This document shows positions 1 through 12,898 of a stretch of DNA of 64,000 bases, one piece after another (the stretch's first letter is position 1; every line of letters starts with the position of its first letter). The notes beneath the pieces are model-generated. The model searched no databases. It was not told where the DNA came from and saw only the letters and a list, made by a program, of their open reading frames with translations. This DNA comes from Candidatus Methanophagaceae archaeon (lineage in GTDB: Archaea > Halobacteriota > Syntropharchaeia > Alkanophagales > Methanospirareceae): positions 30,110 through 94,109 of the forward strand of contig PQXC01000005.1 in the NCBI GenBank assembly GCA_003194435.1, given 5' to 3'. Both the position numbers and the translations under genes were made by a program.

Positions 1-1437
1 AGAGAAGAGGGGGATTTCAGGCGCGATTTCTTGAAGAAGGTGGGCAGGCGGATATACAGGGATAAGATGATAGAGGATGACTGGTTGCGAGTGACGGCAT
101 TGGGGGGCTGTCGAGAAGTTGGGAGGAATGCATTCCTGCTTTCTACGCCGGAGACGAGGGTCTTAATTGACTGTGGAGTGAGTGTAGGCTCGGAAGGCAT
201 GCCCTACTTATATGTACCGGAGGTGTCCCCGATAAGCAATCTGGATGCTGTTGTGATAACACATGCGCATCTCGATCATTCGGGTCTTGTGCCACTCCTG
301 TTTCTATACGGTTATGATGGACCGATATACACAACACAGCCGACGAGGGACCTTATGGCTCTTCTTCTGCTTGATTATATAGAGGTCTCAGCGAGAGAGG
401 GTAAGAAGATACCATATAAATCGGCAATGATAAGAGATGCAATAAGACATACGATACCGCTGAAGTATGGTGAGGTGACAGATATCTCGCCCGATGTGAA
501 GTTGACTTTTTACAATGCAGGGCACATATTGGGTTCAGCAATCGCATATTTCCATCTGGGGAATGGTTCTGTATCGCATAACATTGCGTTCACAGGTGAT
601 ATAAAGTATGAACGTACCTTCCTATTTGACCCTGCATTCAATGCTTTTCCCAGGCTGGATACGCTGGTTATTGAATCCACGTATGGTGGTATGAATGATC
701 AACAGCCCTCAAGGCGAGAGGCAGAGAGGAACCTGAAGGACGAGATAGAACGAACGATAAAGCGGGGTGGGAAGGTAATAATACCGGCATTCGCGGTTGG
801 GCGTTCTCAGGAAGTGATGATTGCGCTTGAAGGTATGCAGCTGGATGTGCCGGTGTATTTAGATGGTATGATATGGGAGGCGACATCTGTACATACTGCA
901 TACCCGGAATATCTGAACAGGAGTTTGAAGAATTCTATATTCCAGGGTGAGAATCCTTTCCTATCAGATATCTTCGTGCAGGTGGATGATGCAGATAAGC
1001 GAAAGGAGGTAATAGAGGAGAAAGAGTCCTCAATTATACTCGCTACTTCAGGCATGCTCAATGGTGGACCGGTTCTGGAATACCTGAAGGGACTTGCAGC
1101 CGATGAGAAGAATACACTCATATTCGTTGGTTATCAGGCAGAGGGTACATTAGGGCGGAGGATACAGAAGGGCTGGAATGAGATACAGTTATCGGATGAT
1201 GGTAAGATAAGGAATATAAAGATAGGGATGGATATAAGGACAGTGGATGGCTTTTCAGGTCATTCAGATCGTAACCAGCTGATTGAATTCGTGAAGGGGA
1301 TTCGACCATTGCCTTCAAAGGTGGTATGCATGCATGGTGAGAATAGCAAATGCATAGCACTGGCAAGTGGGATACACAAGAAATTCAATATAGAGACGAC
1401 GGCGCCGATGAATCTGGAGACTCTGAGATTGGTATAA
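1..1437 (+). CDS. aCPSF1 (FttA)-type beta-CASP / metallo-beta-lactamase ribonuclease; 5' end lies outside the window
   Basis: ORF 31..1437, with the frame open back to nt 1 (REEGDFRRDFLKKVGRRIYRD...). Contains the HAHLDHSG MBL motif and a beta-CASP C-terminal half. The '...WLRVTALGGCREVGRN' junction is the linker that follows the KH domains in aCPSF1, so the KH part is upstream of the window. Confidence 0.8.
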   Translation, partial: REEGDFRRDFLKKVGRRIYRDKMIEDDWLRVTALGGCREVGRNAFLLSTPETRVLIDCGVSVGSEGMPYLYVPEVSPISNLDAVVITHAHLDHSGLVPLLFLYGYDGPIYTTQPTRDLMALLLLDYIEVSAREGKKIPYKSAMIRDAIRHTIPLKYGEVTDISPDVKLTFYNAGHILGSAIAYFHLGNGSVSHNIAFTGDIKYERTFLFDPAFNAFPRLDTLVIESTYGGMNDQQPSRREAERNLKDEIERTIKRGGKVIIPAFAVGRSQEVMIALEGMQLDVPVYLDGMIWEATSVHTAYPEYLNRSLKNSIFQGENPFLSDIFVQVDDADKRKEVIEEKESSIILATSGMLNGGPVLEYLKGLAADEKNTLIFVGYQAEGTLGRRIQKGWNEIQLSDDGKIRNIKIGMDIRTVDGFSGHSDRNQLIEFVKGIRPLPSKVVCMHGENSKCIALASGIHKKFNIETTAPMNLETLRLV

Positions 1438-1474
1438 GAAGCTTTAGAAAGAGGAATAAAAGATAAAGGTAAAG

Positions 1475-2311
1475 GTGAGAGAGAAGATGACAACGATAAG
1501 GGAGAGAATGGAGAGGATGAGTATAGGGAAGCGGATAAGGATGGAGAGGATAGTGGACCGGAATAGCGGTAGAAGTGTTATTGTGCCGATGGACCATGGT
1601 GTGACCTCAGGTCCGATATACGGCTTGACGGACATGAAACAGGCAGTGAATGCAATAGCAGAGGGTGGAGCGAATGCGGTTCTTCTCCATAAAGGTATTG
1701 TGATTGCGGGGCATCGGGGCTATGGTAAGGATATAGGGCTTGTGATTCACCTCTCAGCAAGTACCTCGCTGGGTCCAGACCCACTGGCGAAGGTCATGGT
1801 GGCGACGGTAGAAGAAGCGATCAGGCTGGGTGCTGATGCGGTATCAATGCATGTGAATGTGGGTGCGGATAGCGAGCCGGAGATGCTCGAGGAGCTCGGG
1901 GAGACGGCAATGATATGTGAGGAATGGAGCATGCCTCTCCTGGCGATGATGTATCCCAGGGGTAAGAAGGTGAAGAATGAGCATGACCCCGAGATGGTGA
2001 TGCATGTGGCACGTGTAGGTGCAGAGTTAGGTGCTGACATCATCAAGACGAACTATACCGGAGATCCCGATACATTCAAAGATGTGATACAGAGTTGCCC
2101 GGTGCCAGTGATTATAGCTGGCGGACCAAAGGCGAATACGGATGCAGAGGTACTGAAGATGGTGGAGGATGCGATTTCTGCGGGTGCCTCAGGGGTATCA
2201 ATAGGGAGGAATGTCTTTCAACACGAGAATCCAACGAAGATGACAATAGCAATAAGTAAGATAGTGCATGAGGGCATCACGGCTGCAGAGGCGATGGAGA
2301 TGTTGAAGTGA
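1475..2311 (+). CDS. aroA': 2-amino-3,7-dideoxy-D-threo-hept-6-ulosonate (ADH) synthase, class I aldolase DhnA/MJ0400 family
   Basis: 278 aa. Shows '[31 protein letters not shown]...[15 protein letters not shown]...[12 protein letters not shown]...KTNYTGD...IAGGPK' collinear with MJ0400-type ADH synthases. The exact start among several N-terminal Met codons is uncertain. Confidence 0.75.
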
Positions 2312-2340
2312 GATAATGATAATAACCCAATAGCCCTCAA

Positions 2341-3915
2341 ATGGATTCATACAATATTATACTTATATTTTATCTCTTCCTTATATACTGGTTTATTATA
2401 CTATTTCTCGATAAGCAGGGTTTACTGAAGCGCTACAATATCTCTTCATACGGTCCTATTCTACAGATAAGAGCGGTCAGAGGTGAGAGATTACTGGAGA
2501 GGCTGGGTACAGTAAGACGTTTCTGGAGAGCGTACGCCAATATCGGTACTGTTCTGATGATTATGGCGATGGCTTTTATGTTCTTTCTTGTGATTAATGG
2601 CGCATTTACAATATTTATGGTGAGACCGGAGCCAACAGAGTTGAATGAGCCAAGGAACTGGTTGCTTATCCCCGGCTTGAACACTTTTATACCTATGTGT
2701 GCATGGGTAGGCTTTGTAGTTGCGATGATAGTACATGAGTTATCGCATGGGATATTGAGCATTGTGGAGCGAATAAAAGTGAAATCAATGGGGCTTCTGC
2801 TTCTGTTAGTGCCGATAGGAGCATTTACAGAGCCGGATACTGACCAGCTCTTCGGTACGGCATCAGCACATGAGAGGACGCGTATCCTTTCCGCGGGTGT
2901 GATGGGCAATTTCGTCGTTGCTATCGCTGCATTTCTCATCTTCTTCGGTATTCTCTTCTCCGTTCAGCCTGTCAGTGAGAATGTGCTTTATGTTTATGAC
3001 GTAGCCAATGGTAGTCCAGCAGCAGAATATGGTATAGAGCCACATTCGTTCATCACGGCGATGGATGGAGAAGGGGGAGTGAGCGTAGAAGAGCTGAACA
3101 GCAGACTGGAGAAGGGTAAGACTGCTTATCTCACCATTCTGGATAGAAAGGGCAATAAGAAGGAGATAGCGGTAGAAGGTGAAGTGAATGAGGGCGTAAC
3201 AGTGGTGTTTGTGGAGAAAGGCAAGCCAGCAGCGAAAGCAGGTATCAAGGAGGGTATGACCATAATAAAGATGGATAACAGGAGTATAAGGAGTTATGAT
3301 GATTTCTTCTCTTTCATGAACGATACAGTGGTGGGCGAGGAGATAGAAGTGTGGACGAAGAGAGGAGAAGTATTTGAGATTAAGTTAGAGGAATCGCCAT
3401 ATTATGCGAACCGTGGTTATCTGGGCGTTGATGTTGCCAATTGTGCGCTGGGCATGAGAGTGTTGGAATTTCCAACGAGAACTTACCTGGAGTACCTCCG
3501 GGGCATACCTCGTATGCTCTTCAAATCGCCTGCCAGCTTGCTGTTATTGATGACTTTGCCTGTGCTACCACTCAGCATGGGAGGTTTCAGCACTTTTAAT
3601 CCATTGTTATCGCATTTATACACGCCTGTGGGGATGGCATCCGTTTTTGGTGCTGGTATCTTCTCAATTGCCGATGTGCTGTTCTGGATAGCATGGATAA
3701 ATTTCTATGTGGGCTTATTCAACTGTCTGCCAATGTACCCCTTGGATGGATATTATGTATTCAAGGAGGTATTGAATCCAATGCTGAGGATGGTGATAAA
3801 GGAAGAATCGAAGAAAGAACTGGTTTTAAAGACCATCGCTATCTTCACTGCTGTTATCATCTTTTTATCAATTGTATTCATGTTAGTTGCTCCTTTCGTT
3901 TTTGAGCTCCTCTAA
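2341..3915 (+). CDS. Site-2 protease family (M50) membrane metalloprotease with PDZ domains
   Basis: 524 aa and polytopic. Has an HELSHG (HExxH) motif in a TM helix, two PDZ-like stretches (GSPAAEYGI..., GKPAAKAGIKEGM...) and a C-terminal 'NCLPMYPLDG' motif. Confidence 0.8.
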   Translation: MDSYNIILIFYLFLIYWFIILFLDKQGLLKRYNISSYGPILQIRAVRGERLLERLGTVRRFWRAYANIGTVLMIMAMAFMFFLVINGAFTIFMVRPEPTELNEPRNWLLIPGLNTFIPMCAWVGFVVAMIVHELSHGILSIVERIKVKSMGLLLLLVPIGAFTEPDTDQLFGTASAHERTRILSAGVMGNFVVAIAAFLIFFGILFSVQPVSENVLYVYDVANGSPAAEYGIEPHSFITAMDGEGGVSVEELNSRLEKGKTAYLTILDRKGNKKEIAVEGEVNEGVTVVFVEKGKPAAKAGIKEGMTIIKMDNRSIRSYDDFFSFMNDTVVGEEIEVWTKRGEVFEIKLEESPYYANRGYLGVDVANCALGMRVLEFPTRTYLEYLRGIPRMLFKSPASLLLLMTLPVLPLSMGGFSTFNPLLSHLYTPVGMASVFGAGIFSIADVLFWIAWINFYVGLFNCLPMYPLDGYYVFKEVLNPMLRMVIKEESKKELVLKTIAIFTAVIIFLSIVFMLVAPFVFELL

Positions 3916-3967
3916 TGCCTTATCTTTATCTTTGTCTTTATCATTATCTTCCTTACGAGGCGGAGAG

Positions 3968-4432
3968 ATGGACGACAATTTTGATGCCTTGATTGCGGAT
4001 ATAGAGCGAAAGAAGTCGGAGGAAGAACGTAGGATATATAGTGAGAGGACACTAAAAGAGGCGTACAATCCACGAAACGTGGGTAAGCTGGCGGATCCGA
4101 GCGGTCGTGCTCGAATCACAGGTCCGTGTGGCGATACAATGCAGATAGATATAAGAGTGGAAGCGGGAAGGATCAGCGATTGTAAATTCATTACTGATGG
4201 CTGTGGCGCTTCAATCGCATGTGGGAGTGTGGTAACCGAGCTTGCGAAGGGTGAGCGTATAGAGAAGGCGTTAGAAGTAACAGAGAAGGATGTACTGAGG
4301 GTCTTGGGCGGGTTACCGGCGGAAAACGTCCATTGCGCTGCACTGGCGGTGAAGACATTAAGAGCAGCTATCGGTGATTATCAATGCAGGTCACGAAATC
4401 GCAGTGCTTCCGAACCGGAAATTAGCGCATAA
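3968..4432 (+). CDS. NifU/IscU-like Fe-S cluster scaffold domain protein
   Basis: Taken from the internal ATG at 3968 of ORF 3887..4432; the upstream part is low-complexity. Shows 'NPRNVGKLADPSGRARITGPCGDTMQIDIRV...FITDGCGASIACGS...VHCAALAVKTLRAAI', i.e. the three conserved Cys of IscU/NifU-N. Confidence 0.7.
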   Translation: MDDNFDALIADIERKKSEEERRIYSERTLKEAYNPRNVGKLADPSGRARITGPCGDTMQIDIRVEAGRISDCKFITDGCGASIACGSVVTELAKGERIEKALEVTEKDVLRVLGGLPAENVHCAALAVKTLRAAIGDYQCRSRNRSASEPEISA

Positions 4433-4947
4433 AAAGGTATGAAAAGAGCTAAAACAGTTCTTTCAGGACCGCCTTCAGAGCGGCTATAAGCCAGCGTTAG
4501 AGGTAGGAGATGCGGCAAAAGTTTCACGTTTTAATCGCATCCGAAAAGCAGCAGTGCTGAACTCTCTAATTCATCCAACTCCTCCTCCTCTTCTTCCTCT
4601 TTCTCCTTATATCTTTTATCTTTGTGCATTGCACCTCCTTTCTTCTCTGGCACCTCCCCTGGTCCTGGTAATTCCATATGAATTTCAAAATCTCTAACTC
4701 TCATAAATTTTTGCCTCAATACTAGGACACTACATAGTAACATCTAGTAACATCTTGAACCTCAAAACATTGTTGAAGAAGCAGCATTTATTGCTTTTAA
4801 AAGAAGAGAAACAGGTAACAAAAATAACAAAGAATGATATAATGAAAGCGGCTGATAAGGCACCAAATTCGGTTACACCTGAGGAGGTAGAGCAAATAGA
4901 GGAATGGGCAAAGGAACGGCGCATGAAAACATGAGTATAGGTTCCTA

Positions 4948-5202
4948 TTGACAAAGACAAGCGTAACAGGCGTAAGCAGATGCGGGTTCTATAAGCGGCT
5001 CGGGCAATCGAAGTCCGGACAGGTGAATGCTATACCAGACATGGACAAATGCAGCGGATGGAATCTGGATAGAAGCCTTAACACAGAACAGGCGTTAAAG
5101 GACGTATACAACAAAAAGAAGCTATATTCTGCCATAGGGTACCGCTCTCCCATGGGCTTCGAGAAGGAAAAGGAGAGGAAAGTTTTAAATACTGTTTCTT
5201 AA
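4948..5202 (+). pseudogene. C-terminal remnant of an rve/IS3-IS481-type integrase-core transposase
   Basis: The 84-aa ORF ends '...ALKDVYNKKKLYSAIGYRSPMGFEKE', the typical C-terminal 'YN..R.HSALGY.SP..FE' tail of DDE (rve) transposases. No catalytic core precedes it. Confidence 0.5.
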
Positions 5203-5286
5203 CTATATACTAACCAGGGTGCACTCCACAGATAAGGGGCGGGGAAGATGATTAAAATTAAAGATGGAGAAGTTCGACCAGAGGGA

Positions 5287-5367
5287 TGTATATGCGAACT
5301 TAACTTCGGATATAATGCTAAAACGGTGGTATATACGAACTCGAGTTCGGATATACCGAAGTTGTCC
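5287..5367 (+). repeat. Degenerate or short attC-like site (attC0): two tandem mini-hairpins ending in GTTGTCC
   Basis: The hairpins are TATATGCGAA/TTCGGATATA (about 5289-5314) and GGTATATACGAAC-tcga-GTTCGGATATACC (5328-5357), each with one mismatch. GTTGTCC follows at 5361-5367. The arm sequences are related to those of the full-length copies, but the central region is missing. Confidence 0.5.
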
Positions 5368-5410
5368 GAAATCAGCCGAAGTGCCTTAAATTTAAAGAGG
5401 TGATATAAGT

Positions 5411-6505
5411 ATGAAATTGAATGATGAGCAAATAAAATTGTTGCTTGATAAATTAGTAGCGTCAGAAGAAGCACAAGCATGGGTAAAGCAGAGGTGGGAA
5501 GACCACAAACGATGGAAAGAATGGATCGATCCTGACAAATTGGATACTCTTTCAGATGATGAGTTAAAAAGCAGATTTTTAGAATACTTTAACGAAGGCG
5601 CGGGAAGGCATCCATTTAATGCTGTTTATAGAGACAGAATAGTTAGAGACATCAAGAAATTTAGAGAAGTAATGAAGTTTTTGCTTGATGAATCCATACC
5701 AATAAAGAGAAGGTTAAATGAGATTCTAAACAGAGACGGAAGGTTTCATATTGAAGGAATTGGAAAAGGTCTTGCCACTTCAATTTTAATGGATTTAGAC
5801 CCACAAAAATATGCTACATGGAACAACAAAACAAATATGGGATTGGAAGCTTTGGGTTTAACCCCTCAATTTGTAAGGGGGGATGATTGGGGAACAAGAT
5901 ATGAAAAAGTTATGAAAATTATCAAACATATTAAGGATTTAAAGCCAGAATTTAGCTTCTTAGAGGTTGACCATTTTTTGCATATAGTTTCTGCAACAGA
6001 AGAAGGTAAAGAAGCTGTTAGGGCATTAATTGAGGGTAAAGAAATATCCTCTGAAGTTTCGGAGACAATGAGTCAAATATCAAAAGAAAAAGAGAGTATG
6101 GAATTCGTGATGGAGAAATATTTAGAGGAATTCATCGAGGAAAATTTTGACAAAATAGATTTCGGAGCAAAACTTGAGTTATATCAAGACGAAGAAAATA
6201 CTGGGAGACAATATCCTACTCCAGTTGGTAATATTGATTTACTAGCAATGGATAGAAACAAGAAAGAGTTTGTAGTCATAGAGTTAAAGAAAGGGAGGAG
6301 CAGTGATGTTGTAGTAGGACAGATTTTAAGATATATGGGATGGGTAAAGGAAAATTTAGCGGTTAATGATTACGACCAATATAATATAAGAGGAATTATC
6401 ATATCTAAAGAGAAAGATGATAGATTGGAATACGCTCTAAAAATGCTACAAAACGTAAATGTATTCTTATATTCGGTTTCCTTTGAGTTAAGGAGGGTGA
6501 TATAG
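5411..6505 (+). CDS. Cassette 1: HhH-like N-terminal domain fused to a NucS/DUF91-like PD-(D/E)XK nuclease domain
   Basis: 364 aa. The C-terminus 'GNIDLLAMDRNKKEFVVIELKKGRSSDVVVGQILRYMGW' is the D...E-x-K plus GQ.LRYMGW signature of NucS-type nuclease domains. The N-terminal half contains 'IEGIGKGLATSILMDLDPQKYATWN', a helix-hairpin-helix-like element. A GAGGTGAT RBS precedes the ATG. Confidence 0.65.
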   Translation: MKLNDEQIKLLLDKLVASEEAQAWVKQRWEDHKRWKEWIDPDKLDTLSDDELKSRFLEYFNEGAGRHPFNAVYRDRIVRDIKKFREVMKFLLDESIPIKRRLNEILNRDGRFHIEGIGKGLATSILMDLDPQKYATWNNKTNMGLEALGLTPQFVRGDDWGTRYEKVMKIIKHIKDLKPEFSFLEVDHFLHIVSATEEGKEAVRALIEGKEISSEVSETMSQISKEKESMEFVMEKYLEEFIEENFDKIDFGAKLELYQDEENTGRQYPTPVGNIDLLAMDRNKKEFVVIELKKGRSSDVVVGQILRYMGWVKENLAVNDYDQYNIRGIIISKEKDDRLEYALKMLQNVNVFLYSVSFELRRVI

Positions 6506-6552
6506 ATGGCACTTCGGCTGAATCTCCGCTTCGCTTCGGTGCTATCGCACTC

Positions 6553-6640
6553 GGACAACAGGCGGATATGTGGCTTCGCCTTCGGCTACGCCCAAATTTC
6601 GCCTTACGGCGAAACTTCACATATCCCCAGAACGTTGTGC
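6553..6640 (+). repeat. attC-like site 1
   Basis: R'' is GGACAAC (6553-6559). Arms are GGATATGTG (6564-6572) and CACATATCC (6618-6626). The inner hairpin is TTTCGCC-ttac-GGCGAAA (6597-6614). R' is GTTGTGC (6634-6640). Confidence 0.65.
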
Positions 6641-6666
6641 GAAATCAATAATAAGGAGGATAAGAA

Positions 6667-7381
6667 ATGAAGACTACTGAAAATAAAGAAAAGCCAATAA
6701 TTTTTGTATCACATATAGCAGAAGAAAAAGAAGTTGCTATTGCTTTTAAAGAACTCTTAGAGAATAGTTTTCTAGGAATGGTTGAAGTATTTGTTTCCTC
6801 GGATGAGAAAAGTATCGAAATGGGGCAGAAATGGTTAGAAAGAATAACTGAGGCATTAAAAGCTTGTGCTGTCAAAGTAATAATATGTAGCCCTAAATCC
6901 GTAAACAAGCCTTGGATAAAAGCTACCAATACCGCTAAATATGCTTCAAGCAGGAGTTGCTACAGAAGCATCAAGCCTTAAATTAATATTTTCTGTAATT
7001 GCAAAAGTTTTAGGAGCAAAAGAGCCGAAAGTAGACTTTTCAGAATTCATTAGCAAAATTAGAGAGTTTGAAAAGATTTATACTTACTGGGATGATATAA
7101 ACAGAGTTTTTGAAGAAATACATCGTATAAATCCACAGATAATAGAAGCCCTAAAATCTCGAAAGAATATTCAAATTCAACTTACAGAACCTCAAATAAA
7201 TATGTTTGAAAACATATTTCGACAACTAGAGGAGAAAAACATCTTAAGATTTAGGAGAATAGGTGGAGCTACTATAACACCAATAGGAATGTATATTAAT
7301 TGCGTGATAGAAATTCTACCAGATTTCAAAAAGGTGGTTTCCGATGGACATTTCATATTTTGCAGGGATTTTAAAGCATGA
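6667..7381 (+). pseudogene. Cassette 2: TIR-domain protein gene split into two overlapping frames (6667..6981 and 6941..7381)
   Basis: ORF1 reads 'KPIIFVSHIAEEKEVAIAFKELLE...VFVSSDEKSIEMGQKWLERITEALKACAVKVIICSPKSVNKPWI', a TIR fold up to the 'S.W' strand. It then runs into an out-of-frame tail. The +1 frame continues '(K)LPIPLNMLQAGVATEASSLKLIF...'. The segment that normally carries the catalytic Glu after 'PWI' appears to be missing. Confidence 0.55.
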
Positions 7382-7385
7382 CTTC

Positions 7386-7461
7386 GCACAATAAACGGGT
7401 ATACGGTTCGCTTCGCTCACCCAAACCCTTGCGGGCTTCGTATACCCGCAAACCGTTATAT
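7386..7461 (+). repeat. attC-like site 2
   Basis: It starts 5 nt after the stop of the TIR ORF. R'' is GCACAAT (7386-7392). Arms are GGGTATACG (7397-7405) and CGTATACCC (7439-7447). R' is GTTATAT (7455-7461). Confidence 0.65.
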
Positions 7462-7525
7462 GAAATGCGAGCGGAGGCAAAAATCTTTAGAAAAAGTAAA
7501 TCAAAAATAATAAAAGAGGAGAAAT

Positions 7526-8644
7526 ATGAGTAAATTTATGTTTAAGATTGGAGAGAAGATATTTCAAATAGAAGATCTTGGTGAGTCCGTGAACTCTCAG
7601 TTTTTGAGACTACATGAGAGCCATTTTTCTGGACGCGGTTTTGACCTCACTAAGTTTAGAAAAGAGGCATTAGATTTTTTCGATCATAGCGATGGCAATT
7701 ATCACGCTCACGATGAATTTTTTAATAATTTTACCATTATTTGGCGATCCTTTTTAAATCAAAGGCGTTTTAAAAACGCAGAGTATCTCTGGGACTTTGC
7801 TTTAAATATCGCCTATGATTGGGAAAACAAAAATCAAAACAAAAGAATCCATAAGGGAACTCCATACTATTTCTGGGGTGTGACTTGTATCTTGAATGGG
7901 GATTTGGAAAAAGGGTTTTTGCTAATGCACCAAGCATTGGAAGAGGACAAAAAGACTCATCAAACCAAAACTCCTAAAACTCCCGCATATTCTTTTGTTA
8001 CTCTGGATTATGAAAATCAGAACCAGTTCTTTAGACCAAAAGTGAGAGAAATTGCAAAATTCCTTGATGAAAATTATTTGAACAGTTACCGTTCTTCGAG
8101 GGGAGGGACATTAACTTTATCTGACTTTAAAACAAAATTCTTGGAAGAATCTGCTTTACAAGAAGTAGTTTTTTACTTTATTTTTGAATTATTCCGTCTT
8201 AAAAAGTTGCTTGAAGAGATAAATCAAAGATTAACACAGAATGTCTTCAGCTCTTTGCTACAAGCAAACACAATATTTACTCTTTGTCTCATCATAGATA
8301 ATGTTATTAAGCAAAAAAATCCCAATCAATGGAAATTTTCAGAACACCTGAAATTTTTATCTTCTAGATCCTCATTAAACCTTAATGATCAAAAGATTGG
8401 AGAATTAAATGGAGCATTCACAAACAATTTTTCCAATACGCTACAAAAATTATTAAGTTCACAATACCAATTTCAAGATGTAACTACACCGCAACCTATT
8501 GAGGAAGATTTAGCAATTACCTATGGTTTTAGAAATTTTGGAGCTCATAAAGTAGAAGATCAACCTGTTGTTTATCAAAACTTTGATGAAATATCGAGGA
8601 GGATTTTAAATGCTTTATTTTTCTCCGTCGAAAAATTGTACTAA
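7526..8644 (+). CDS. Cassette 3: all-alpha hypothetical protein with a C-terminal R-x4-H (HEPN-like) motif
   Basis: 372 aa, preceded by a GAGGAG RBS. No family is recognised by eye. 'AITYGFRNFGAHKVED' near the C-terminus matches the RNxxxH form of the HEPN RNase motif. Confidence 0.55.
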   Translation: MSKFMFKIGEKIFQIEDLGESVNSQFLRLHESHFSGRGFDLTKFRKEALDFFDHSDGNYHAHDEFFNNFTIIWRSFLNQRRFKNAEYLWDFALNIAYDWENKNQNKRIHKGTPYYFWGVTCILNGDLEKGFLLMHQALEEDKKTHQTKTPKTPAYSFVTLDYENQNQFFRPKVREIAKFLDENYLNSYRSSRGGTLTLSDFKTKFLEESALQEVVFYFIFELFRLKKLLEEINQRLTQNVFSSLLQANTIFTLCLIIDNVIKQKNPNQWKFSEHLKFLSSRSSLNLNDQKIGELNGAFTNNFSNTLQKLLSSQYQFQDVTTPQPIEEDLAITYGFRNFGAHKVEDQPVVYQNFDEISRRILNALFFSVEKLY

Positions 8645-9065
8645 GAATGTCTCCGCTCGCACTCTGCGGCTTCCTACGGAAGCCTTGCCTCGCCTTCTGC
8701 TCGGTCATATAACACGGGCTATACGGCTCACTCCGTTCGCCCAAATACCGCCAAAGGCGGAACTTCGTATAGCCCGAATACGTTATCGGAAATGGCGGGA
8801 AATAAATGGTTGAAATCCATGCAAAGATACAGCAAACTATATAAAGAATACCAGCATGGTCAAATTGATAAGGAATATAGCCCATAATTGCCATAACAAT
8901 TCCCACCGGGACACCTACCATAAAAACCCAGCCGAAACAGAAAACCATAAGTAATGCACCATAAATATGGTAGGCATAGCTTATTTTTAGCAGCTCTAAT
9001 GATCCAATACCGAAGATGATTAGGTCGCATATATACTCTTTTTTCATCATAATTTTCCCCAGCAT
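8529..9065 (-). CDS. Possible small membrane protein; 3' end doubtful
   Basis: The first ~90 codons are hydrophobic (GALLMVFCFGWVFMVGVPVGIVMAIMGY...). The ORF then reads through attC-like site 3 and into the antisense of the previous gene, so only the 5' part (about 8790-9065) is credible. Confidence 0.25.
   Translation of the reverse strand: MLGKIMMKKEYICDLIIFGIGSLELLKISYAYHIYGALLMVFCFGWVFMVGVPVGIVMAIMGYIPYQFDHAGILYIVCCIFAWISTIYFPPFPITYSGYTKFRLWRYLGERSEPYSPCYMTEQKARQGFRRKPQSASGDILSTIFRRRKIKHLKSSSIFHQSFDKQQVDLLLYELQNF
8707..8788 (+). repeat. attC-like site 3
   Basis: R'' is ATATAAC (8707-8713). Arms are GGGCTATACG (8716-8725) and CGTATAGCCC (8766-8775). The inner hairpin is CCGCC-aaa-GGCGG. 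R' is GTTATCG (8782-8788). Confidence 0.65.
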
Positions 9066-9301
9066 CTATCAATCAAATATCCAAGTCCAGCACCGAACAT
9101 GATACCAATAATTGGTGCTAACAAGAAGAATACAATATGACTATTCCAGATATCTGCGATAAAAAATGCAAGAGTGGTTGGCAAACCAAAAGTATATCTT
9201 ATCAGAGGATGATTAAGCCACACCCCACCCGAAAGGATTATTATACTTGTCAATCCCCAAATCCCGCCGATTATTGATCCAATTTTCCATTTTTTCATCA
9301 T
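9047..9301 (-). CDS. Small hydrophobic membrane protein (hypothetical)
   Basis: 84 aa with 2-3 predicted TM stretches (IGSIIGGIWGLTSIIILSGG..., LAFFIADIW..., FFLLAPIIGIMFGAGLGYL). It lies inside cassette 4, opposite in orientation to the other cassette ORFs. Confidence 0.4.
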   Translation of the reverse strand: MMKKWKIGSIIGGIWGLTSIIILSGGVWLNHPLIRYTFGLPTTLAFFIADIWNSHIVFFLLAPIIGIMFGAGLGYLIDRCWGKL

Positions 9302-9309
9302 AATTTATT

Positions 9310-10860
9310 ATACCTACTTTACTTTGGTATGAAAATACTTCGAACTTCCTTATCTATAAAACCTTTGAGACTACATATCCACACCCCTCCAGTTCTCTTA
9401 TCAACCTTAGTTCCCTATTTTTTGACTTCCTTCCATTAACAGCTTCAGCGCCTACATCCTGATAAAGCTCGCCTGTTTTTAATACACGATAGATCTCGAT
9501 CAATATCTGGTGTCCGACCGCGACCAAAGCTCGATTTTTACCACGCCTTCTGGCAATATTGTGGTACATAGCGCTTAAAGCAGTGCCTTTGGTTCTCGAT
9601 GCAGCCCACGCCGCCTCTGTCAAGGTGGCTTTGAGGTAATTATTTCCTCTTCTCGTTTTTCCGCTTTTTTTCTTTCCCGCGCTCTCATTATTGCCAGGAC
9701 ACATCGCAGCCCAGGAAGAGAGATGCGCCTCATCCGGAAACCTTGACATATCAACCCCGATCTCAGCGATAACTGAAGCTGCCGAGACTTCTTTGATGCC
9801 CGTAACAGATTGGATAGCCCTGAATTCCTTCTCGTACGGTCGCAGCTTTCGCTGAATCTCCTCATCAATCTCTCTTATCCGTTCAACAATGCAATCGATG
9901 TGGGCTAAATGCTGTTTTAGCAGAAATCGGTGGTGATCAGTTACATTCCCATTAAGGGCTTTCACTAATTGATTCACTTTCCTCTTGAGCTTCCCCTTCG
10001 CCATTTCTGCAATTTCATCCACGGAGAGCGTGTCTTTCTCCAGCAATGCACCGATCATATTCAGGGAGGAGACCCCGAAGACCTTTGACACAACAGACGA
10101 GATTTTGATATTTGCATCTTCCAGGACCTTTTGAACTCGATTTTTCTCTGCGGTCATCGCTTCAACAAGTTTTCTTCGCGTTCGGGTAAGATCGCGCAAC
10201 TCTCTGATTTCTCGAGGCGGAATAAAGCTCCCTGAAATCAATCCATTTCTGAACAAATGGGCAATCCACTGGCAGTCTTTGACGTCGGTCTTCCTTCCTG
10301 GGACGTTTTTGATGTGCTGTGCATTTGCAAGAACTACTTCAAAATCGTCCTCAAGTATATTGAAGATAGGTTTCCAGTATATGCCTGTGCTCTCCATTGC
10401 TACTGCGGTCACACCGTATTCCTTCAGCCATTCCTTCAACGTTCTGAGGTCGTCGGTCATCGTTGAAAACTTCCTGATCTCGAACTTCGGTGGCTTATCC
10501 AATGGTCCATGTGCAATACACGCCATCACCATCGACTTATGGACATCAAGTCCACAACAACTCTTCAATATGGGCTGCATGTTACACCTCCTCGAGACGA
10601 GCGAAGCAACATTAGAATAGGATAAGTTTGGTACTCGTGCCCCCAAAGGGGCAACATTCATGGGTTCTAAGAGTTGCCTGGGTCAGTTTCTTTTGCGGGG
10701 TTTCATTACAATGAACCACCAGAAAAAATCGACCAATATCGCTCGTCTCATGATAGTATATATAGGTGAAATTTAATTCTATTCATATTCACCCATTTTC
10801 ATGCTCATGGGTGTCCCCTTGGGTCATGGAGGTTTCTTTTTAATGAGATTTGGAAGCAAG
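9310..10860 (-). mobile_element. IS110-family insertion sequence (boundaries approximate)
   Basis: A single transposase gene with ~200-280 bp of non-coding leader, including the hairpin GCCCC-caaa-GGGGC at about 10638-10651. IS110 elements lack clear inverted repeats, so the ends cannot be fixed from one copy. Confidence 0.35.
9354..10580 (-). CDS. IS110-family (DEDD) transposase
   Basis: The start is taken at 'MQPILKSCCGLDVHKSMV...' (internal Met of ORF 9354..10661). Shows 'GLDVHK', 'AMESTGIYW', '...VTGIKEVSAASVIAEIGVDMSRFPDEAHLSSWAAMCPGNNESAGKKKSGKTRRGNNYLK', typical of IS110/IS1111 transposases. Confidence 0.85.
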   Translation of the reverse strand: MQPILKSCCGLDVHKSMVMACIAHGPLDKPPKFEIRKFSTMTDDLRTLKEWLKEYGVTAVAMESTGIYWKPIFNILEDDFEVVLANAQHIKNVPGRKTDVKDCQWIAHLFRNGLISGSFIPPREIRELRDLTRTRRKLVEAMTAEKNRVQKVLEDANIKISSVVSKVFGVSSLNMIGALLEKDTLSVDEIAEMAKGKLKRKVNQLVKALNGNVTDHHRFLLKQHLAHIDCIVERIREIDEEIQRKLRPYEKEFRAIQSVTGIKEVSAASVIAEIGVDMSRFPDEAHLSSWAAMCPGNNESAGKKKSGKTRRGNNYLKATLTEAAWAASRTKGTALSAMYHNIARRRGKNRALVAVGHQILIEIYRVLKTGELYQDVGAEAVNGRKSKNRELRLIRELEGCGYVVSKVL

Positions 10861-10871
10861 AGATATCAAAG

Positions 10872-11177
10872 ATGAAAGAAACGTTGATGATTGTTGATGG
10901 ACATGTTGGAAAAGTATTTTGTAGAACAGGCACGTTAGAAGAAGTTTTGTATGAGAAGAGAAGACCGTATATTATTCAGGCAAGTAAAATGAGACCATGG
11001 ATAGAAGAAATTGTTTCAAGATTTGAAAAAATCCCGTTTTATGTTGACAACGGAGCATTTTATCTTTTTGAAGATGGGCATTGTAGCGATTTAGAACCAA
11101 ATTGTAAAGATTGCCCCGTAAATAAACTCTGCAAGAAATATCTAAAATGGACTGCATATCAAATATGGGAGGAATAG
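10872..11177 (+). CDS. EndoIII/HhH-GPD-like C-terminal fragment with a [4Fe-4S] cluster loop
   Basis: 101 aa. 'VDGHVGKVFCRTG' resembles the post-HhH 'VDTHV.RV.NR.G' segment. 'CSDLEPNCKDCPVNKLC' is an exact C-x6-C-x2-C-x5-C FCL motif. The HhH-GPD N-terminal half is absent, and the IS110 lies immediately upstream. Confidence 0.5.
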   Translation: MKETLMIVDGHVGKVFCRTGTLEEVLYEKRRPYIIQASKMRPWIEEIVSRFEKIPFYVDNGAFYLFEDGHCSDLEPNCKDCPVNKLCKKYLKWTAYQIWEE

Positions 11178-11193
11178 AGATGTCCGCCACTTC

Positions 11194-11275
11194 CGATAAC
11201 AGCAGACATACGGCTACGCTTCGCTCCGCTAAAATTCGGCAAAGCCGAACTTCGTATGTCCGCAAAACGTTAGAC
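11194..11275 (+). repeat. attC-like site 4 (last in the array)
   Basis: R'' is CGATAAC (11194-11200). Arms are GACATACG (11205-11212) and CGTATGTC (11253-11260). The inner hairpin is TTCGGC-aaa-GCCGAA. R' is GTTAGAC (11269-11275). Confidence 0.65.
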
Positions 11276-11365
11276 AACATAGCCTTAGAAGGGGAATGAT
11301 ATTCCGCAGTACGACAAAAAAGAGGTAACGTACAGATGGAACTTAACTTCATTTCCACTTCATTT

Positions 11366-12898
11366 CTATTTCTCGCTTCGTGGTAATAGCCAGGCTCTGC
11401 GTAGCCAGTCTATATCCGGCTGATACAGGTCTCTTATGTCACTCAGACCCAGGCTGATCATGGCTAAACGTCCGATACCAAGTCCCCAGGCTAATACGGG
11501 ATATTTTACGCCTATTGGATGAGTGACCTCCTCTCTGAATATGCCAGCACCACCCAGCTCTATCCAGCCCCTCTCTGTGTATACTTCAACCTCCACTGAT
11601 GGTTCGGTATAGGGAAAATATCCGGGTCGGAATCGTATAGAAGGGAACCCCATCTTCCGATAGAATACTGCGAGACACCCGAGCAAATTGGCAAACGTCA
11701 CGTCGCGGTCCATGATAATACCTTCCAGCTGGTCGAATTCTGGTATGTGGGTCGGGTCAATGGTCTCGCGGCGATACACGCGCCCGATGCAAAAGACCTT
11801 AACAGGTGGCTCGGGATGTGAAGCCAGGTATTTCACAGTAACTGCGGTGGTATGAGTCCGTAGAAGCAGCTCCTCACCCTGCTCTCTCCTCCATTCACCA
11901 CCCCAACCCGATGAATTTAATGGTCCCCCGTGCTCATGCATCTCCTTTACACGTTTTATCAACTCCTCAGAAGCGTCTATAGGCCTCTTCAAGCCAAGAT
12001 AGAAAGTATCCTGCATCTCCCGTGCAGGATGGTCCTGCGGCACAAATAACGCATCGAAATTCCAGAACGCGCTCTGAACGTGTTCACCCTTTATCTCTAT
12101 GAACCCCATCTCGGTGAAGATTTTTCTCATGCGGTCCAGAATCCGCTGATAAGGGTGCAACTTAGCTGCGAATATCTCTCGCCCCGATATATCCACATCA
12201 TAACGTTTGAATTTGAACCTCCGCCCTTTCCATGTCCTTATAATCTCAGGTGTTAACTGTGCTATCTCCTCCTCAATAGATAACCCACGCTCAAGGAGCT
12301 CCATACCCGCATCTGTGATGCCTATTCTCCGTTCTACCCGGGTAGAACTCACCACCAGTCGCCGTGAAATCAACTGTGTTATGACCTCCTGTTTGGTCTC
12401 CGGCTTCAATTCCGACTGCCCTTCTGCCAGGGCGAGAGAACGCAGTATTTCCTCATCAGCGCCATAAGGGGGTTCAGCATTGACAGTGGGTATTACACGT
12501 CCATTATCAATATACGCCCAGTTCTTCCGCAGCAGCCAGTTTATTGCTATATTCACACGTTTACCGAGAGCATGTTTCAGGTATTCTACCGATGTTGCTC
12601 CCTCATGCTGTAATAATAAACGAAGTGCTTTACGTTCTGGTAGTGCATCCGCAGCATACTCCTCACCCTCTGGTGTCAAACGATAATAAATCCTTCGCTG
12701 CTCTTTAACCACACAAAGCCCTTTCTTTGCGAGTGTAAACGCTGCTTGCATAACTGCGTCTTCGTTTGTACCTGTGAGTTCAGCCAGTACCGCTGGGGCA
12801 TACTCATACTCACGCACACGCGCACCATCACCGCGCTGGCGCTGAAACGCGAGTAAAAGCCTCTTCTCCGCTGCTGTTAGCTCAGAATCTACCGCCAT
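11366..12898 (-). CDS. pheS: Phenylalanine--tRNA ligase alpha subunit (archaeal type)
   Basis: 510 aa with N-terminal winged-helix repeats and a class II core ('FWNFDALFVPQDHPAREMQDTFY', 'LRTHTT', 'GRVYRRE', 'GAGIFREEV'). Confidence 0.9.
   Translation of the reverse strand: MAVDSELTAAEKRLLLAFQRQRGDGARVREYEYAPAVLAELTGTNEDAVMQAAFTLAKKGLCVVKEQRRIYYRLTPEGEEYAADALPERKALRLLLQHEGATSVEYLKHALGKRVNIAINWLLRKNWAYIDNGRVIPTVNAEPPYGADEEILRSLALAEGQSELKPETKQEVITQLISRRLVVSSTRVERRIGITDAGMELLERGLSIEEEIAQLTPEIIRTWKGRRFKFKRYDVDISGREIFAAKLHPYQRILDRMRKIFTEMGFIEIKGEHVQSAFWNFDALFVPQDHPAREMQDTFYLGLKRPIDASEELIKRVKEMHEHGGPLNSSGWGGEWRREQGEELLLRTHTTAVTVKYLASHPEPPVKVFCIGRVYRRETIDPTHIPEFDQLEGIIMDRDVTFANLLGCLAVFYRKMGFPSIRFRPGYFPYTEPSVEVEVYTERGWIELGGAGIFREEVTHPIGVKYPVLAWGLGIGRLAMISLGLSDIRDLYQPDIDWLRRAWLLPRSEK

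Follow-up and report, generated by a model that had tools for sequence, protein, structure and literature searches.

We analyzed a 64,000-nt stretch of contig PQXC01000005.1 from a Candidatus Methanophagaceae archaeon (hereafter the window, positions being counted from its first nucleotide), in which the segment 5264-11275 is, with a probability of about 0.82, a cassette array belonging to an integron-type system of archaea from which the recombinase gene has been lost. The block is a real, recombination-built cassette array: an attI-like entry site is followed by four cassettes, each closed by a long imperfect hairpin site (attC-like site), and the closing bases of one site are complementary to the opening bases of the next. 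An earlier interpretation made from the nucleotides alone (hereafter the sequence-only reading) had proposed an integron-like array at this place. Its cassette logic, chained ends and expected turnover of cassettes all held, but the recombinase that is linked to such arrays in other contigs is not a canonical IntI.

Hairpin sites with chained ends in the window

Four full copies of a structured repeat, 81-93 nt in length, lie at 6553-6645, 7386-7466, 8707-8793 and 11194-11280, and a short relative lies at 5318-5372. The repeat family was found nowhere else in the 64 kb by a pattern search or by the covariance model R1, which matched only these five places, scoring 84.5, 66.4, 80.6 and 80.1 bits on the attC-like sites of cassettes 1 to 4 and giving a weak match (17.9 bits) at 5318-5372. 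R1 was built from 15 sites of the window, L020, L063, L187, L189 and L190, covering three archaeal orders (L-numbered loci are contigs of relatives and metagenomes that were compared with the window). Positions 5287-5367, taken earlier as one more copy of the repeat, are indeed related to it, but they form part of the conserved entry site and are not just another copy.

In all four sites inverse core boxes, an R'' box ending in AAC and an R' box of the form GTTnnnn, flank an imperfect palindrome whose arms are perfectly complementary, as had been claimed (9/9, 9/9, 10/10 and 8/8). DNA folds gave an L stem of 9-12 bp and an R stem of 13-25 bp, in which nnnnAAC is paired with GTTnnnnGAAAT, and the bottom strand was the more stable one in all window sites. 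Two further features of attC sites had been proposed as a check. The asymmetric spacer was present, with 0-3 nt unpaired on the R'' side versus 4-7 nt on the R' side, but extrahelical L-box bases were absent from the folds of the four window sites, where the L stem is continuous and without bulges; by sequence reading, sites s1 and s4 have one mismatch at the outer end of this stem. The centre of the sites is not variable, as that of attC would be. It has a conserved order of hairpin 1, CCAAAT, hairpin 2 and ACTTC, which is kept across sites of ANME-1 (Methanophagales), Methanotrichaceae and Thermoplasmatota, with covariation in hairpin 2. We also observed the motif GAAAT after the GTTnnnn box in most sites across orders (in the window at 5368-5372, 6641-6645, 7462-7466 and 8789-8793); the last site lacks it and is followed by ACAAC... 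(11276-11280), the beginning of chromosomal or ancestral entry-site sequence.

The central claim of the sequence-only reading was that the GTT 7-mer closing one copy is the reverse complement of the AAC 7-mer opening the next copy. At the coordinates given there, all of which proved correct, the four junctions match at 7/7, 6/7, 7/7 and 7/7 positions. The chaining is even stronger than had been described: the pairing between the closing GTTnnnn and the next nnnnAAC extends to 13-25 nt, one junction having a 17-nt inverted repeat that is 94% complementary (8782-8798/11184-11200). Duplexes between the 5' flank of each site and the 3' tail of the preceding one had energies of -15.0, -13.4, -16.2 and -19.1 kcal/mol, versus -9.2, -9.0, -8.2 and -6.5 kcal/mol for the same four 5' flanks with their own tails. 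Each chained energy is the minimum of its row and column, and the chained arrangement is therefore the best of 120 possible assignments. When the sites were reconstructed as they would stand in circular cassettes, they folded 8-16 kcal/mol better than the in-array versions.

A conserved entry site at the head of the array

The attI-like entry site (5264-5363, plus strand) ends in ...GGATATACCGAAG|TT (CCGAAG|TT) and contains two 27-nt direct repeats, each of which is an imperfect hairpin (5288-5314 and 5329-5355). Sequence conservation among contigs stops at the GTT (5361-5363), and the bases right after it differ from contig to contig. The conserved element heads the array as an attI does, and in the window the adjoining integrase gene is missing. 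The 19-mer GTTCGGATATACCGAAGTT of the entry site was present in at least 120 metagenome contigs, of which about 116 carry the element; its occurrences in L096, L110, L162 and probably L073 were set aside as chance matches. This 19-mer can serve as a simple tag for retrieving hypervariable ANME-1 gene pools from metagenomes. Two entry-site patterns had no match among viral contigs, and there is therefore no sign of a viral carrier.

Eight attC-like matches were seen on the same strand upstream of the entry-site core (L152, L136, L122, L078, L142, L138, L068 and L091), and in L152 and L136 a GrpE-like gene stands between one such match and the entry site, at which the gene ends. In some cases the entry element may therefore lie inside, or behind, another array.

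The chain rule and the site structure hold in independent loci

The ANME-1 metagenome-assembled genome (MAG) contig L020 has an array of the same kind, which starts with a sequence nearly identical to window positions 5287-5363. In the first 100 further loci (L064-L163), R1 identified 112 sites, and all 105 of its matches in the contigs recovered with the 19-mer (L067-L163) are on the strand of the entry site. Site length across loci is 81-108 nt. Comparison of the variable bases of GTTnnnn with those of the next nnnnAAC at 89 non-redundant junctions revealed agreement at 4/4 bases in 60 and at 3/4 in 15; a site's own two boxes agreed at 4/4 in only 3 cases. The permutation test that had been suggested for the chained complementarity gave a clear result on these independent junctions: 310 of 356 variable positions matched, versus 181.8±8.5 after shuffling, and none of 10,000 shuffles reached 310. 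Compensatory changes were present in 13 of the 17 predicted pairs of the L stem and the second inner hairpin (15 sites), including 8 of the 10 core pairs of the L stem, and the bottom strand was more stable in 73 of 81 distinct sites (Wilcoxon p=7e-14).

Some cassettes in these loci are large and carry several genes (L188 10935-18811; L192 1500-5790; L189 9160-16046), for instance one of 7.8 kb with SUKH/SMI1 and DEAD-helicase genes and one of 4.2 kb with LysM and nSTAND NTPase genes. Among the cassettes of L189 are two restriction-modification systems, of the AlwI and Bpu10I types. Most array-bearing contigs are short (1-5 kb), which suggests that arrays break assemblies.

Cassettes are gained, lost and reordered between strains

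As anticipated by the sequence-only reading, the nifU-like/pheS junction varies at the level of individual cassettes. The contig L176 has the flanks of the window (1-5363 at 93-96% and 11247-12176 at 95% identity) around a different array of 4.75 kb. In L159 and L087 only the last cassette is common with the window. The cassette with a TIR-domain gene is located ~6 kb from the entry site in L130 versus 1.3 kb in the window, and cassette 3, with the same start, is found behind other cassettes in L137. At the same pheS end, L063 has two other cassettes that obey the chain rule. Homologous exchange is unable to produce chained ends, while site-specific insertion of circles at one point can do so.

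These same data dispose of the view that the sites are intergenic structured repeats comparable to repetitive extragenic palindromes or miniature inverted-repeat transposable elements, with array differences arising through homologous recombination and deletions: the repeats do lie between genes, form structures and have a higher GC content than the cassettes around them, and some junctions disobey the chain rule, but window sites occur only in the block, R1 recovered arrays only in L020 and L063 (whose sites were among those used to build the model) and single matches in four others of 63 pheS-anchored relative loci (part of 980 kb), every site is on one strand, the same cassette occupies different array positions, and the excess of chained matches is beyond the reach of homologous exchange, so that this explanation can be dismissed.

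A Xer-like recombinase gene adjoins the entry site in relatives

No tyrosine recombinase was found in the window, either by phmmer with IntI1 and a second tyrosine-recombinase seed against open reading frames (ORFs) of at least 60 aa, or by tblastn with P0004, a member of the recombinase family described below, which matched entry-site DNA only. In seven intact platforms, from ANME-1, Methanotrichaceae, Thermoplasmatota and two further contigs, a tyrosine recombinase gene lies just upstream of the entry site. Specifically, in all seven inspected homologues (L089 and L187-L192) the gene is full length or nearly so and is followed directly by the entry site and the cassettes. It is located on the cassette strand, ends 10-70 nt upstream of the entry site and encodes a protein of ~350 aa, that of L187 having 355 aa, and in these platforms the chain rule holds from the entry site to the first attC-like site. 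Since it is obeyed there both in L189, from a Methanotrichaceae MAG, and in L190, from a Thermoplasmatota MAG, the system occurs in more than one archaeal order. Remnants of the gene, truncated to its 3' part, precede the entry site in ~25 further contigs, and in the window other gene fragments (within 4755-5202, plus strand) occupy the spot that the recombinase gene has in the intact platforms. The earlier alternatives, a cluster of attC sites lacking an integrase (CALIN) or an integrase located elsewhere or lost, are borne out by these observations. The link surfaced through phmmer with IntI1 as seed; clustering of ORFs from 120 contigs had revealed no conserved gene at that place, since in most contigs the left flank is short or differs.

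The recombinase has the Pfam domains Phage_int_SAM_4 and Phage_integrase. Its best NCBIfam match, in one stretch, was NF040815 ('XerA_Arch: site-specific tyrosine recombinase/integron integrase'), and the integron-integrase model TIGR02249 matched in two stretches only. Alignment with IntI1, the sequence used for which scored 799.5 bits against NF011946, gave 34% identity and 45 gap positions, which are concentrated over residues ~180-250 of IntI1. These residues are the IntI-specific insertion, and judging from this alignment the recombinase is without it. The C-terminal RSPLD tail is common to both proteins, and the scores of the recombinase against XerA (4a8e and 5hxy) and VchIntI4 (2a3v) were equal, at ~153 bits. 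An extra N-terminal domain of ~65 residues, not covered by the aligned XerA structures, was modelled confidently by AlphaFold as β-β-α-β-β-α in a model of moderate overall quality (mean predicted local distance difference test score 64.8, catalytic domain poor). In a fold search, XerA, IntI and other tyrosine recombinases were the sole matches, with none for the N-terminal domain, whose similarity to HARP is below the Pfam cut-off and serves as a lead only. There are 7,093 homologues at E ≤ 1e-30, the best 120 of the 7,093 being 66-99% identical to the query fragment.

Proposed mechanism

In the mechanism that we propose, each cassette would once have been a DNA circle with one long imperfect hairpin site, made up from the outside to the inside of an R stem, an asymmetric unpaired spacer, an L stem of 9-12 bp and two small hairpins split by CCAAAT. 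A tyrosine recombinase, for which the Xer-like protein is the candidate, would cut this circle in the R stem, within the conserved GTT or immediately beside it (the boundary is of the G|TT type and lies within ...CGTT), and the cut circle would be joined to the entry site at the equivalent point. In the linear cassette, bases 1 to 6-25 would then be the 3' half of its own R stem, from which the chained complementarity would follow; the 5' half would be left at the far end of the cassette, where it pairs with the cassette start. For cassette 1, the predicted circular junction has ...CCCCAGAACG joined to TTGTCCGAAATCAGCC. New cassettes would come in at the entry site, and excision and re-entry would reshuffle them. 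To judge from the difference in stability between the strands, the substrate may be the folded bottom strand, which would agree with bacterial integrons. Because the recombinase gene is gone in the lineage of the window, further turnover would need a copy acting in trans, and a supply in trans is also suggested by strains that have the same integrase-less platform yet differ in their cassettes.

Several observations weigh against the interpretation as a system of this type. The window has no recombinase gene, and the array may be frozen. It also shows visible decay, as the TIR gene has a deletion of 74 nt and part of cassette 4 has undergone an IS110-linked replacement; with this decay and no integrase gene nearby, the array may be inactive now. 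A minority of junctions, moreover, break the chain rule (L189 12459 versus 13436; L086; L117; L133). Conserved gene order is the one thing that points to the Xer-like recombinase as the catalyst. In L155, L098 and L111 a small serine recombinase gene is located upstream of the entry site instead, and a canonical IntI, which may be the true catalyst, has been reported from a single ANME-1 MAG contig (Ghaly et al. 2022, PMC9668308).

In one chain-breaking junction, for example, GTTAAGT is followed by GCCTAAC. Such breaks would be expected if sites had been missed or deleted, or if two attC-like sites had recombined with each other. The serine recombinase gene (221 aa) is divergent and lies ~190 nt upstream of the entry site; in L155 (2756-3418, 3527-4687) a second, 387-aa tyrosine recombinase stands beside it and may belong to a neighbouring mobile element. 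We set the small serine recombinase aside as catalyst, as it is found in three contigs of one context only.

Alternative origins and comparison with known integrons

The evidence tips slightly in favor of the arrays being a widespread archaeal integron lineage with its own machinery, which would consist of an insertion-less IntI/Xer-like integrase with a small N-terminal domain, an attC with a conserved three-way junction at its centre and a hairpin-type attI at the 3' end of the integrase gene. The N-terminal domain may be HARP-like and bind branched DNA.

It is unlikely, although a good part of the site anatomy would fit, that the block is instead a CALIN of a canonical integron, with ordinary attC sites, a true IntI elsewhere in the genome and the Xer-like gene as a bystander or a dimer-resolution enzyme. 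The four sites spaced 821-2487 nt apart with no recombinase in 64 kb form a CALIN, for which two or more attC sites within 4 kb of each other are required, conditional on the sites being attC, and they have AAC/GTT-type boxes, a G|TT-compatible boundary and R and L boxes with an asymmetric spacer; the RSPLD tail, too, is common to the recombinase family and IntI1. Integrons have been described in 75 archaeal MAGs (Ghaly et al. 2022, Sci Adv 8:eabq6376; PMC9668308), among which two ANME-1 MAGs (GCA_013374555.1 and GCA_017883965.1) are listed, one with 7 attC sites detected by IntegronFinder and one IntI (on QENK01000356.1) and the other with 2 attC sites (Data S1/S3). Integron-type arrays in ANME-1 are therefore not new, and the earlier remark that integrons are rare in archaeal MAGs needs qualifying accordingly. 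The published arrays are like those described here in that most of them have no integrase gene nearby, attI is immediately downstream of intI, and TIR, restriction-modification and toxin-antitoxin genes are among the cargo. However, the archaeal IntIs are stated to carry the IntI-specific domain (Ghaly et al. 2022), whereas the gene directly upstream of the entry site is without this insertion in 7 of 7 platforms, and the L boxes of the published attC sites (Data S9) are different. When R2, a surrogate model derived from six of these published sites, was run with filters off and E up to 10, all four sites of the window were missed, which is a weak negative only. The L stems without extrahelical bases and the conserved two-hairpin junction in place of a variable loop also argue against ordinary attC sites, and a housekeeping Xer would not be expected to remain as truncated remnants beside arrays.

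Less probable still is a system derived from Xer/dif, such as integrative mobile elements exploiting Xer or the pdif modules of Acinetobacter, in which the XerA of the cell would recombine double-stranded DNA at dif-like half-sites. The recombinase fits the archaeal XerA model best, matches XerA structures and is equally close to XerA and IntI, and the arms TTCGGATATAA and TTCGTATA resemble the dif arm TTGGATATAA of P. abyssi, with a similar half-site motif GGATATAA (Cortez et al. 2010, PMC2958812). Yet archaeal dif is a single 28-bp site that is not adjacent to xerA in Thermococcales (PMC2958812), whereas here many long hairpin sites form arrays, the gene adjoins the entry site and is often degraded, and its product carries an additional N-terminal domain. 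The sites are hairpins of 81-108 nt with compensatory changes and not 28-bp sites of the 11-6-11 type, and their two strands differ in stability. Furthermore, pdif sites alternate in orientation, and all 105 sites in our contigs point one way.

Compared with the sedentary chromosomal integrons of bacteria (Vibrio cholerae superintegron, IntIA, VCR-type attC), the system that we propose for Archaea also has a chromosomal array of mostly promoterless cassettes on the same strand, each closed by an imperfect hairpin site with AAC...GTT boxes; the boundary is G|TT, the start of a cassette pairs with its own end, the entry site is at one end of the array, sites are similar within a lineage, the bottom strand is favored, and defence- or toxin-type cargo is carried. 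It is unlike them in that the linked recombinase is without the IntI-specific insertion and has an extra N-terminal domain, and its gene is co-oriented with the cassettes, with the entry site at its 3' end. Differences also extend to the sites, which have R stems of 13-25 bp, an L stem without extrahelical bases and a conserved two-hairpin centre with CCAAAT, and to the entry site, which is itself a hairpin pair. An integrase gene oriented as the cassettes is also a feature of the reverse-orientation integrons of Spirochaetota, the integrases of which are IntI proteins with the additional domain. By a formal definition that relies on IntI, the arrays fall outside integrons in their integrase domain, extrahelical bases and variable centre; an integron-like mechanism is nevertheless supported. 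In the literature, for which our coverage was incomplete, we found no description of a Xer-like integrase with archaeal cassette arrays.

Among the devices with which bacteria collect and reshuffle genes, integrons are the best understood. What defines their integrase is an additional domain, which is considered necessary for the enzyme to act on folded attC sites. The cassette logic of integrons, with a G|TT-type boundary, a single entry site, turnover and defence-type cargo, is found here in ANME-1, a key uncultured methane-oxidizing archaeon. If the linkage to the Xer-like recombinase is functional, integron-finding software, by the definition that it applies, overlooks a large archaeal family (with over 7,000 homologues at E ≤ 1e-30), many archaeal 'integrase-less' arrays gain a candidate enzyme, and the origin of integron integrases from Xer-like recombinases becomes testable with a natural intermediate. 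If the arrays are indeed a lineage with machinery of its own, it becomes understandable that almost every archaeal 'integron' found so far was scored as integrase-less; such a lineage might be a sister form, or a precursor, of bacterial integrons.

Cassette cargo in the window

Analysis with Pfam and PADLOC revealed defence-like cargo in the cassettes. In cassettes 1 to 3, the distance from the cassette start to an ATG is 49, 32 and 70 nt, and GAGGTG, AGGAGG or GAGGAG stands before this ATG, in keeping with the ribosome-binding sites claimed earlier. Cassette 1 (5362-6634, plus strand; attC-like site 6553-6640) has a 364-aa ORF (5411-6505, plus strand) with a C-terminal PDDEXK nuclease domain (Pfam YhcG_C and NucS_C), and its product resembles a candidate for phage defence (PADLOC PDC-S02, E=3e-46). 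A distal stem of this cassette pairs 6509-6522 with 5374-5387. The protein is identical on three short Guaymas-type metagenome contigs (L064-L066), on which cassettes 1 and 2 are present at 99.9% identity.

In cassette 2 (6635-7455, plus strand; attC-like site 7386-7461; PADLOC TIR-TM, E=6e-12) the TIR-domain gene is broken at 6919/6920 by the 74-nt deletion, which leaves the ORFs 6667-6981 and 6941-7381. The deletion, defined relative to L064-L066 and L130, is flanked by 2 nt of microhomology. These four contigs encode an intact TIR_2 protein of 262 aa, and the copy in the window is either a pseudogene or an assembly error. Cassette 3 (7456-8782, plus strand; attC-like site 8707-8788) has a 372-aa ORF (7526-8644, plus strand) whose product had no match in Pfam or PADLOC, and its distal stem pairs 8650-8661 with 7467-7478.

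Cassette 4 (8783-11269, plus strand; attC-like site 11194-11275) is rearranged. The minus-strand membrane ORFs (two, both small) and the IS110-family element reported for this cassette are located at 8810-10832, a segment that stands in for a methyltransferase gene and the front of a 213-aa ORF of the otherwise identical cassette of L159; its left junction comes after ...GAAATAAATGG and its right one before TTTCTTTTTAATGAG. Comparison with L159 identifies the remaining Cys-rich ORF of 101 aa (10872-11177, plus strand), and cassette 4 looks like the remnant of a methyltransferase-containing cassette of which the first 2 kb were replaced. The transposase gene of the IS110 family (DEDD; 9354-10661, minus strand) matched Pfam DEDD_Tnp_IS110 at E=9.6e-28 and Transposase_20 at E=3.4e-21, and no second copy of the element was found in the window or in the examined loci. 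Elements of the IS1111-attC group of this family insert into the attC sites of bacterial integrons. Like them, the element here lies inside an array, but it is located in the body of a cassette beside the replaced segment and not in a recombination site, and it would leave the cassettes unexplained. It was also rejected as the mover of cassettes, being a single copy inside a cassette body that leaves the chained ends unexplained. A 178-aa minus-strand ORF (8529-9065) begins in cassette 4 and continues over the attC-like site into cassette 3; no more than the first ~94 codons are inside cassette 4, and the frame is therefore probably fortuitous.

Genomic context of the array

The array is part of a 6.9-kb block between the convergent nifU-like gene (ending at 4432) and pheS (11366-12898, minus strand), its right-hand neighbour. 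The nifU gene directly adjoins pheS in the relatives L058, L040, L038, L015, L028 and L008, and we therefore consider this adjacency the ancestral state and the 6.9-kb block an insertion. The pheS of the window has 88% identity to that of MAG AUK002, its other good matches being in Methanophagales and related MAGs; the source lineage is a relative of ANME-1 (Methanophagales). Contigs with ANME-1-type pheS (L063, L037 and L021) have been deposited under Thermotogaceae, Desulfobacteria and Bathyarchaeia MAGs, which are likely binning errors. Exact-protein look-ups with pheS and the cassette-3 protein retrieved no identical record, no tRNA genes were found in the window, and no Rfam family matched its 64 kb at gathering thresholds. 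The AT-richness that had been noted for the block is real, with a GC content of 0.355 for 5362-9300 versus 0.466 and 0.473 in the flanks (block range 0.355-0.38).

To the right, the junction from the last crossover (TTAGACAAC...) to the stop of pheS (11270-11365) is common to L176, L127, L119 and L159, homology restarting at 11247 with L176 and at 11301 with L127 and L119. To the left lie gene fragments, one of them putatively from a transposase, as had been proposed. The C-terminal fragment of a Vps4_C-type AAA-ATPase (4755-4934, plus strand) was supported by Pfam (Vps4_C, E=2.6e-5), but the putative C-terminal fragment of an IS3/rve-type transposase (4948-5202, plus strand) had no Pfam match and was assigned by reading of the motif ...YSAIGYRSPMGFE alone. 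The stretch 5009-5363 travels with the entry site into other chromosomal contexts (L086, L092 and L143).

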